The position numbers and the translations under genes are program-made. This document shows positions 63,805 to 64,000 of a DNA stretch of 64,000 bases, in pieces; position 1 is the first letter of the stretch; every line of letters begins with the position of its first letter. The stretch is from Escherichia coli (GTDB lineage Bacteria; Pseudomonadota; Gammaproteobacteria; Enterobacterales; Enterobacteriaceae), in the NCBI RefSeq assembly GCF_003334305.1, contig NZ_QOWS01000022.1; one strand, written 5' to 3'. Under the pieces are notes generated by a model, which was given only the letters and a program-made list of their open reading frames with translations, made no database searches and was not told the DNA's origin.

Positions 63805-63819
63805 GCCGCCCCTGCCGTG

Positions 63820-63861
63820 CCTGCCCAGGCTGGATAAGACGCGCCAGCGTCGCATCCGGCA
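63820..63861. repeat. REP element downstream of yjaB
   Basis: GCCTGCCCAGGCTGGATAAGACGCGCCAGCGTCGCATCCGGCA followed by T7. Confidence 0.7.
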
Positions 63862-63880
63862 TTTTTTTCTGCGCCAATGC

Positions 63881-63908
63881 AAAAAGGCCATCCTGACGGA
63901 TGGCCTTC
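63881..63908 (-). terminator. rRNA-operon distal terminator (rrn T2-like)
   Basis: Minus-strand AGAAGGCCATCC-GTCA-GGATGGCC-TTTTT and flanking AAACTGCCAGGCATCAAATTAAGC match the recalled terminator region distal to 5S rRNA in E. coli rrn operons. Confidence 0.7.
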
Positions 63909-64000
63909 TGCTTAATTTGATGCCTGGCAGTTTATGGCGGGCGTCCTGCCCGCCACCCTCCGGGCCGTTGCTTCGCAACGTTCAAATCCGCTCCCGGCGG

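Follow-up and report, generated by a model that had tools for sequence, protein, structure and literature searches.

What separates yjaB from the neighbouring rRNA operon in this Escherichia coli chromosome, and what has become of yjaA, which lies between the two in K-12, is the question raised by the end (positions 63805-64000) of the stretch of DNA analysed here, a 64,000-nt piece of contig NZ_QOWS01000022.1 that is called the window below. The segment is almost certainly the intergenic tail between the convergent yjaB (plus strand) and rrnE (minus strand) on the chromosome of a phylogroup B1 strain of E. coli that carries the yjaA-negative allele. The rrnB-type T1/T2 terminators, the REP elements, and the presence or absence of yjaA are all long established, and the window is an ordinary example of each.

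The last 701 nt of the window are 100% identical to one record alone, that of E. coli strain A7 (NZ_CP028767.1), whose isolation source is orangutan faeces, and the second-best match among the complete E. coli genomes reaches 98.9% identity. Three overlapping stretches of A7 and the window, summing to ~15 kb, are base-for-base identical. Toward the end of the window, a 309-aa open reading frame on the minus strand (62275..63204), annotated as metA in A7, encodes homoserine O-succinyltransferase (TIGR01001, 552.7 bits against a cut-off of 495), and divergent from it a 147-aa open reading frame on the plus strand (63361..63804), convergent with rrnE, is yjaB, which encodes a GNAT lysine acetyltransferase (NCBIfam NF007807, 276 bits against a cut-off of 134) and ends in VGE* in the window vs VGA* in K-12. 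Past the window end, A7 carries T1, 5S, 23S, tRNA-Glu, 16S, and purH in sequence according to its annotation and Rfam, with the 5S gene (Rfam, 93 bits) at window-equivalent positions 64090-64205, 285 bp past the yjaB stop. The 5S and 23S genes that the sequence-only reading of the window had expected beyond position 64000 are therefore in place, and no yjaA separates them from the terminator. The K-12 annotation gives the order purH, rrsE, gltV, rrlE, rrfE, yjaA, yjaB, metA, in agreement with the gene order that had been given for that strain, and since the A7 order purH-16S-tRNA-Glu-23S-5S matches that of K-12 rrnE, the operon is rrnE.

The tail begins with 23 nt (63805-63827) that are specific to yjaA-negative rrnE/yjaB alleles, being common to other yjaA-negative E. 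coli and to Escherichia sp. E1V33 and not found in the K-12 rrnA, rrnB, or rrnG tails. A single repetitive extragenic palindrome (REP) follows at 63828-63860, 24-56 nt past the yjaB stop and between that stop and T2; it reads on the minus strand as the imperfect palindrome GCCGGATGCGACGCTGGCGCGTCTTATCCAGCC, forms a hairpin in the predicted fold, and has a core motif, GCCKGATGMGRCG, that occurs 11 times in the window. Its match to the REP-derived Rfam family naRNA4 is weak (31.7 bits vs a gathering score of 59.5, E=0.0014). In its length as an imperfect palindrome (~33 nt), its extragenic position between convergent units, and the many copies of its core motif in the window, the element resembles the REP elements of enterobacteria generally, but it is a single unit and not part of a BIME cluster. 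The distal intrinsic terminator T2, a GC-rich hairpin followed by a U-run on the rRNA sense strand, occupies 63881-63909 on the minus strand (77-105 nt past the yjaB stop). It is followed at 63915-63932 (111-128 nt past the stop) by ATTTGATGCCTGGCAGTT, 18 nt that repeat, as the reverse complement, the 3' end of the 5S rRNA together with its junction and that contain the shorter 5S-like string GCCTGGCAGTT (63922-63932) remarked on earlier as a duplication of the 5S 3' end. This sequence is one of two direct repeats that bound a 168-bp module of T1 and spacer, the second copy lying 168 bp beyond it in A7, at the true 3' end of the 5S. The part of the T1-T2 spacer that falls within the window (63933-64000, minus strand, from 129 nt past the yjaB stop to the window end) is identical to K-12 rrnB, and a terminator scan places T1 just outside the window at window-equivalent positions 64041-64084 of A7, again on the minus strand.

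The succession of a REP and terminator-like rrn sequence after the yjaB stop, as first read from the window, was thus found no more than a few bases from the place given for it; of the accompanying statement that both lie within 80 bp, the part on the REP, which starts within that distance, holds, while T2 starts ~77 nt from the stop and runs past 80. The terminator is of the rrn type that had been proposed, namely rrnB-type T1/T2, here belonging to rrnE. Between the 3' end of the 5S and the U-run of T2, the first 216 aligned bases of A7 and K-12 rrnB are the same but for four, and these four make up a flipped T2 loop, GTCA in A7 vs TGAC in K-12 rrnB; the next difference is at the base immediately after these 216, in the U-run. 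When the 5S is counted in, the A7 tail and the K-12 rrnB and rrnA tails are 97.9% identical over 334-383 nt, and the match to rrnA, in which T2 is followed by the same REP as in the window, extends through the REP (97.9% over 383 nt). The rrnB distal region, for which the sequence of the operon and the first description of T1/T2 are reportedly due to Brosius and colleagues in 1981, shares with the window the 5S, the T1 hairpin, the spacer, a 13-18-nt repeat of the 5S 3' end, and the T2 hairpin in the same order, and is unlike it in that the window belongs to rrnE, has a flipped T2 loop, and continues after T2 into a REP and yjaB rather than murB. Across strains and rrn operons, the 4-nt T2 loop (63890-63900 in the window) is seen in both orientations, TGAC and GTCA, and the variation looks like a hairpin-loop inversion; one B1 strain has a change in the T2 stem to a G-T pair.

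Two hairpin and U-run structures are present on the rRNA sense strand, T1 by the terminator scan and T2 by sequence and fold. The scan of A7 called T1 and missed T2, we think because the T2 stem runs into its U-run, and the miss does not count against T2; in the minimum free energy structure of the 290-nt tail, the T1, T2, and REP hairpins all appear, and the fold has a z-score of -9.5 relative to shuffled sequences. Termination by rrnB T1/T2 is established in the literature, and the pair is widely used in expression vectors. From their identity to these elements, T1 and T2 at this locus would be expected to terminate RNA polymerase. Transcripts of the rRNA genes arriving from beyond the window end would pass the 5S and then meet T1, a strong hairpin a short way beyond the window, and any polymerase reading through T1 would cross the 168-bp module and be halted at T2 as the second intrinsic terminator. 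The T2 hairpin may also end yjaB transcripts and so be used in both directions. Two kinds of RNA candidate in this region were discarded: a truncated Rfam match of RtT RNA over the T1-T2 spacer (19 bits, E=0.65), which vanished in a scan of the full A7 sequence and is put down to chance or a truncation bonus, and sub-threshold matches of small RNAs (RsmY, MicC, STnc70, and others) at the window end.

The same tail leaves no room for yjaA, as had been supposed: the gap between the yjaB stop and the 5S is 285 bp in A7 vs 520 bp in K-12, where it holds the 384-bp yjaA. Neither blastn nor tblastn found yjaA in the 64-kb window (tblastn E>4 anywhere), no open reading frame of the YjaA family (NF041448, to which K-12 YjaA itself scores 177 bits) lies in the 285-bp gap, and the Clermont yjaA primers give no product in the window and 211 bp in K-12. 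For the whole A7 chromosome record, the 701 nt specific to A7 were joined to K-12 yjaA placed in a non-native orientation, and the number of matching places in A7 stayed at 6 while the total for the collection rose by 2,600, in agreement with the 2,601 yjaA places found by direct search; at megablast sensitivity (roughly >=85% identity), the A7 chromosome record thus contains no yjaA, and the absence first noticed in the window extends to the rest of the chromosome at that sensitivity. Homology between A7 and K-12 ends, toward the rRNA genes, immediately past the 5S and, toward yjaB, inside its last codon (GE* vs GA*). The segments in between are unrelated, the K-12 rrnE terminator differs from that of A7, and a MAFFT alignment of the two 5S-yjaB segments returned scattered matches only, so that a reading of them as homologous was rejected. 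Because no sequence is shared between the 5S and the last yjaB codon and the rrnE terminators differ, the K-12 and window forms are related by replacement of unrelated segments, 285 vs 520 bp, and not by a simple deletion of yjaA.

Of 5,426 complete E. coli genomes, 2,594 (48%) have yjaA, and in 2,805 yjaB runs into an rrn tail with no yjaA between them, while 27 genomes belong to neither class. The junction of the window type, with the T1-spacer module, accounts for 828 genomes (15%), BL21(DE3) included, and a junction in which T2 directly follows the 5S, as in O157:H7, for about 1,977 (~36%, a figure obtained by subtraction rather than by a direct count). When the yjaA-less forms are aligned, they differ in one 168-bp segment, located exactly between the 18-nt repeats of the 5S 3' end and absent from E. 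coli O157:H7, Escherichia sp. E1V33, and K-12 rrnG. The duplication of the 5S 3' end, confirmed here as ATTTGATGCCTGGCAGTT at 63915-63932, is therefore a boundary repeat of the 168-bp module, since the ends of the indel fall exactly at its two 18-nt copies. Three allelic states of the junction segregate in the species: that of K-12, in which a yjaA cassette comes with an rrnE terminator of its own; the order 5S-T2-REP-yjaB; and the order 5S-T1-spacer-5S'-T2-REP-yjaB, which is the form of the window, the second and third being set apart by the 168-bp indel with its 18-nt direct repeats. Alleles would be exchanged by homologous recombination through the conserved flanks. The window is the yjaA-negative genotype of the polymorphism scored in the Clermont triplex and quadruplex schemes and is the same in kind; what is added here is a description of how the negative alleles are built and how often they occur in the 5,426 genomes. 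Two further observations were made on individual strains: strain HH45 has a divergent yjaA, and a 4.83-Mb record named "Escherichia coli strain DH5alpha" (NZ_CP026085.1) is yjaA-negative with a B1-like metA-yjaB region and is probably mislabelled.

A second copy of the yjaA-less arrangement lies at another rRNA operon. The K-12 rrnG tail consists of a yjaB 3' end, a REP remnant, T2, and 5S, and aligns to window positions 63745-63933; downstream of rrnG, an annotated 20-aa protein, YfiS (MEVGKLGKPYPLLNLAYVGV; NC_000913.3, 2725925-2725987, corresponding to 726-788 of locus L047), shares 17 of its 20 residues with the YjaB C-terminus. This relic is found between kgtP and rrnG in essentially all of the 5,426 genomes. 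Given that the REP remnant, T2, and 5S come after the YjaB-like YfiS (17/20), it appears that the rrnG tail is a fossil copy of a yjaA-less rrnE/yjaB junction and that YfiS is a relic of the YjaB C-terminus.

An outgroup scan with YjaB, using one genome per species, returned 38 loci, and most of those from draft assemblies stop no more than a few hundred bp past yjaB, as an rrn repeat would lead one to expect. In Salmonella enterica subsp. diarizonae the order is yjaB-T2-5S'-spacer-T1-5S, with 89% identity to A7 and without yjaA or a REP; Klebsiella, Citrobacter koseri, and Escherichia sp. E1V33 have yjaB-(REP)-T2-5S, likewise without yjaA; and the yjaA-less junction also occurs in other Escherichia (E1V33 and MOD1-EC7003). 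Orthologues of yjaA with 64-66% amino acid identity were found in Phytobacter diazotrophicus (4466-4846 of locus L024) and Kosakonia sp. S29 (4465-4845 of locus L025), in both cases with yjaB on one side, the rrn terminator and 5S on the other, and a leader conserved with that of K-12 yjaA, and these positional orthologues indicate that yjaA is old at this site. The type strain of Escherichia whittamii, Sa2BVA5, is 90-95% identical to K-12 from aceB to metA and 98-100% identical from yjaB through yjaA to the terminator (3800-5035 of locus L004), with 99.7% identity in yjaA itself, and this segment is an apparent inter-species recombination tract that carries the yjaA allele. Both junction states thus seem to predate the species, and the marker seems to be mobile by homologous recombination. 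The fuller reading, in which the rrnE/yjaB junction would be an old three-state polymorphism whose yjaA-less state preceded the E. coli radiation and whose alleles have moved between species via the rrn and metA/yjaB flanks, is one for which belief and doubt are evenly balanced. A search of an incomplete library for literature that links yfiS with yjaB, or yjaA with rrnE, found nothing relevant, and these observations on the outgroups, the three junction states, their recombination, and the YfiS relic are the only points here that are possibly undescribed.

These comparisons also bear on the other ways in which a yjaA-less junction could have arisen. A recent deletion of yjaA in this strain from a K-12-like rrnE-yjaA-yjaB arrangement would fit with the age of yjaA at the site, where the Phytobacter and Kosakonia orthologues imply that a loss happened somewhere, but it is very improbable in view of the occurrence of the yjaA-less junction in more than half of the complete genomes, in other Escherichia, and (REP aside) in S. 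enterica subsp. diarizonae, of the lack of shared sequence from the 5S to the last yjaB codon together with the different K-12 rrnE terminator, and of the fossil junction beside rrnG in essentially all E. coli. A loss that is both recent and strain-specific is effectively refuted by this evidence; an ancient loss is possible. The transfer of yjaA to another place in the genome can be given next to no credence, for there is no DNA or protein match to yjaA in the window and the count of matching places in A7 is unchanged with yjaA appended, against which stand a few genomes with more than one yjaA place, one such place being on a plasmid.

An error of assembly, in which the collapse or mis-joining of rrn repeats set the terminator of another operon beside yjaB and dropped yjaA, would have the repetition of the T1-T2 region across rrn operons in its favour, with 6 matching places in A7, as well as the closer likeness of the tail to K-12 rrnA and rrnB than to its nearest B1 relatives (98.4-98.9% over 701 nt vs 100% for metA-yjaB), the differences from those relatives being placed by alignment in the intergenic tail. 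The same type of junction is nevertheless found in 828 independent complete genomes, BL21(DE3) among them, the unique 23 nt and the REP join yjaB to T2 unbroken, the gene order from purH to the 5S is that of K-12 rrnE, and gene conversion between rrn tails would be expected to leave just such small differences from other B1 strains, all of which makes such an error hardly credible. Nothing found here speaks against the reading given at the outset. Compared with the B1 strain 504838 (locus L051), the A7 rrnE tail shows about a dozen base differences and a 3-nt indel and is nearer to K-12 rrnA and rrnB, which suggests that it has been gene-converted from another rrn operon.

The lineage was assigned with the Clermont quadruplex primers, of which the yjaA, TspE4.C2, and chuA pairs were first validated on genomes: 2,316 genomes yield the 152-bp TspE4.C2 product, which falls in an alpha/beta hydrolase gene, and 2,207 yield the 288-bp chuA product, which falls in chuA. 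Both arpA primers (AceK.f/ArpA1.r) match the window exactly and delimit an amplicon of 400 bp on the minus strand (57065..57464), with none expected by chance. A7 gives an exact 152-bp TspE4.C2 amplicon in the alpha/beta hydrolase gene (8293-8444 of locus L043), and at the canonical chu site, which is where chuA was looked for, it has no chuA, dctR and yhiD being 41 bp apart, whereas in chuA-positive strains chuS and chuA adjoin dctR. The in-silico profile is thus arpA+, chuA-, yjaA-, TspE4.C2+, a combination (+ - - +) that denotes phylogroup B1 (PMC6113867). On this full marker set, extended through A7, the strain is typed in silico as phylogroup B1, and the non-K-12 lineage that had been inferred from the missing yjaA and an extra segment between lysC and yjbD is borne out. 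The 1.5-kb metA-yjaB region is 100% identical to that of O104:H4, which we take to be phylogroup B1, and of many non-O157 STEC, all without yjaA, and it is at least 99% identical in about 1,400 genomes. BL21(DE3), presumably of phylogroup A, has the same kind of yjaA-less junction as the window, so that yjaA-negativity alone does not exclude phylogroup A. The arpA gene itself (about 55512-57085 in the window) is annotated in A7 as a frameshifted pseudogene of the ShET2/EspL2 family, the Clermont amplicon being still intact.

The extra segment between lysC and yjbD proved to be real, a three-gene island that 1,425 of the 5,426 genomes carry. It spans 43077-45969 of the window, and its products are annotated as a zeta toxin family protein, a protein with a nucleotidyltransferase domain, and a slipin family protein; PADLOC, applied to these three proteins, returned one weak sub-threshold match and nothing else.

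The main use of the locus is in strain typing, where it marks a yjaA-negative B1 strain whose rrnE operon ends in a textbook T1/T2 pair, and it offers little beyond that. A yjaA-negative Clermont result reflects allelic replacement at the recombination-prone flank of an rrn operon, and horizontal exchange of the yjaA marker is therefore plausible, a possibility of which the authors of ClermonTyping have warned in general terms (PMC6113867). Draft assemblies break at the yjaB-rrn junction. The three-state junction and the YfiS relic are relevant to the evolution of rrn operons and to the annotation of small proteins.
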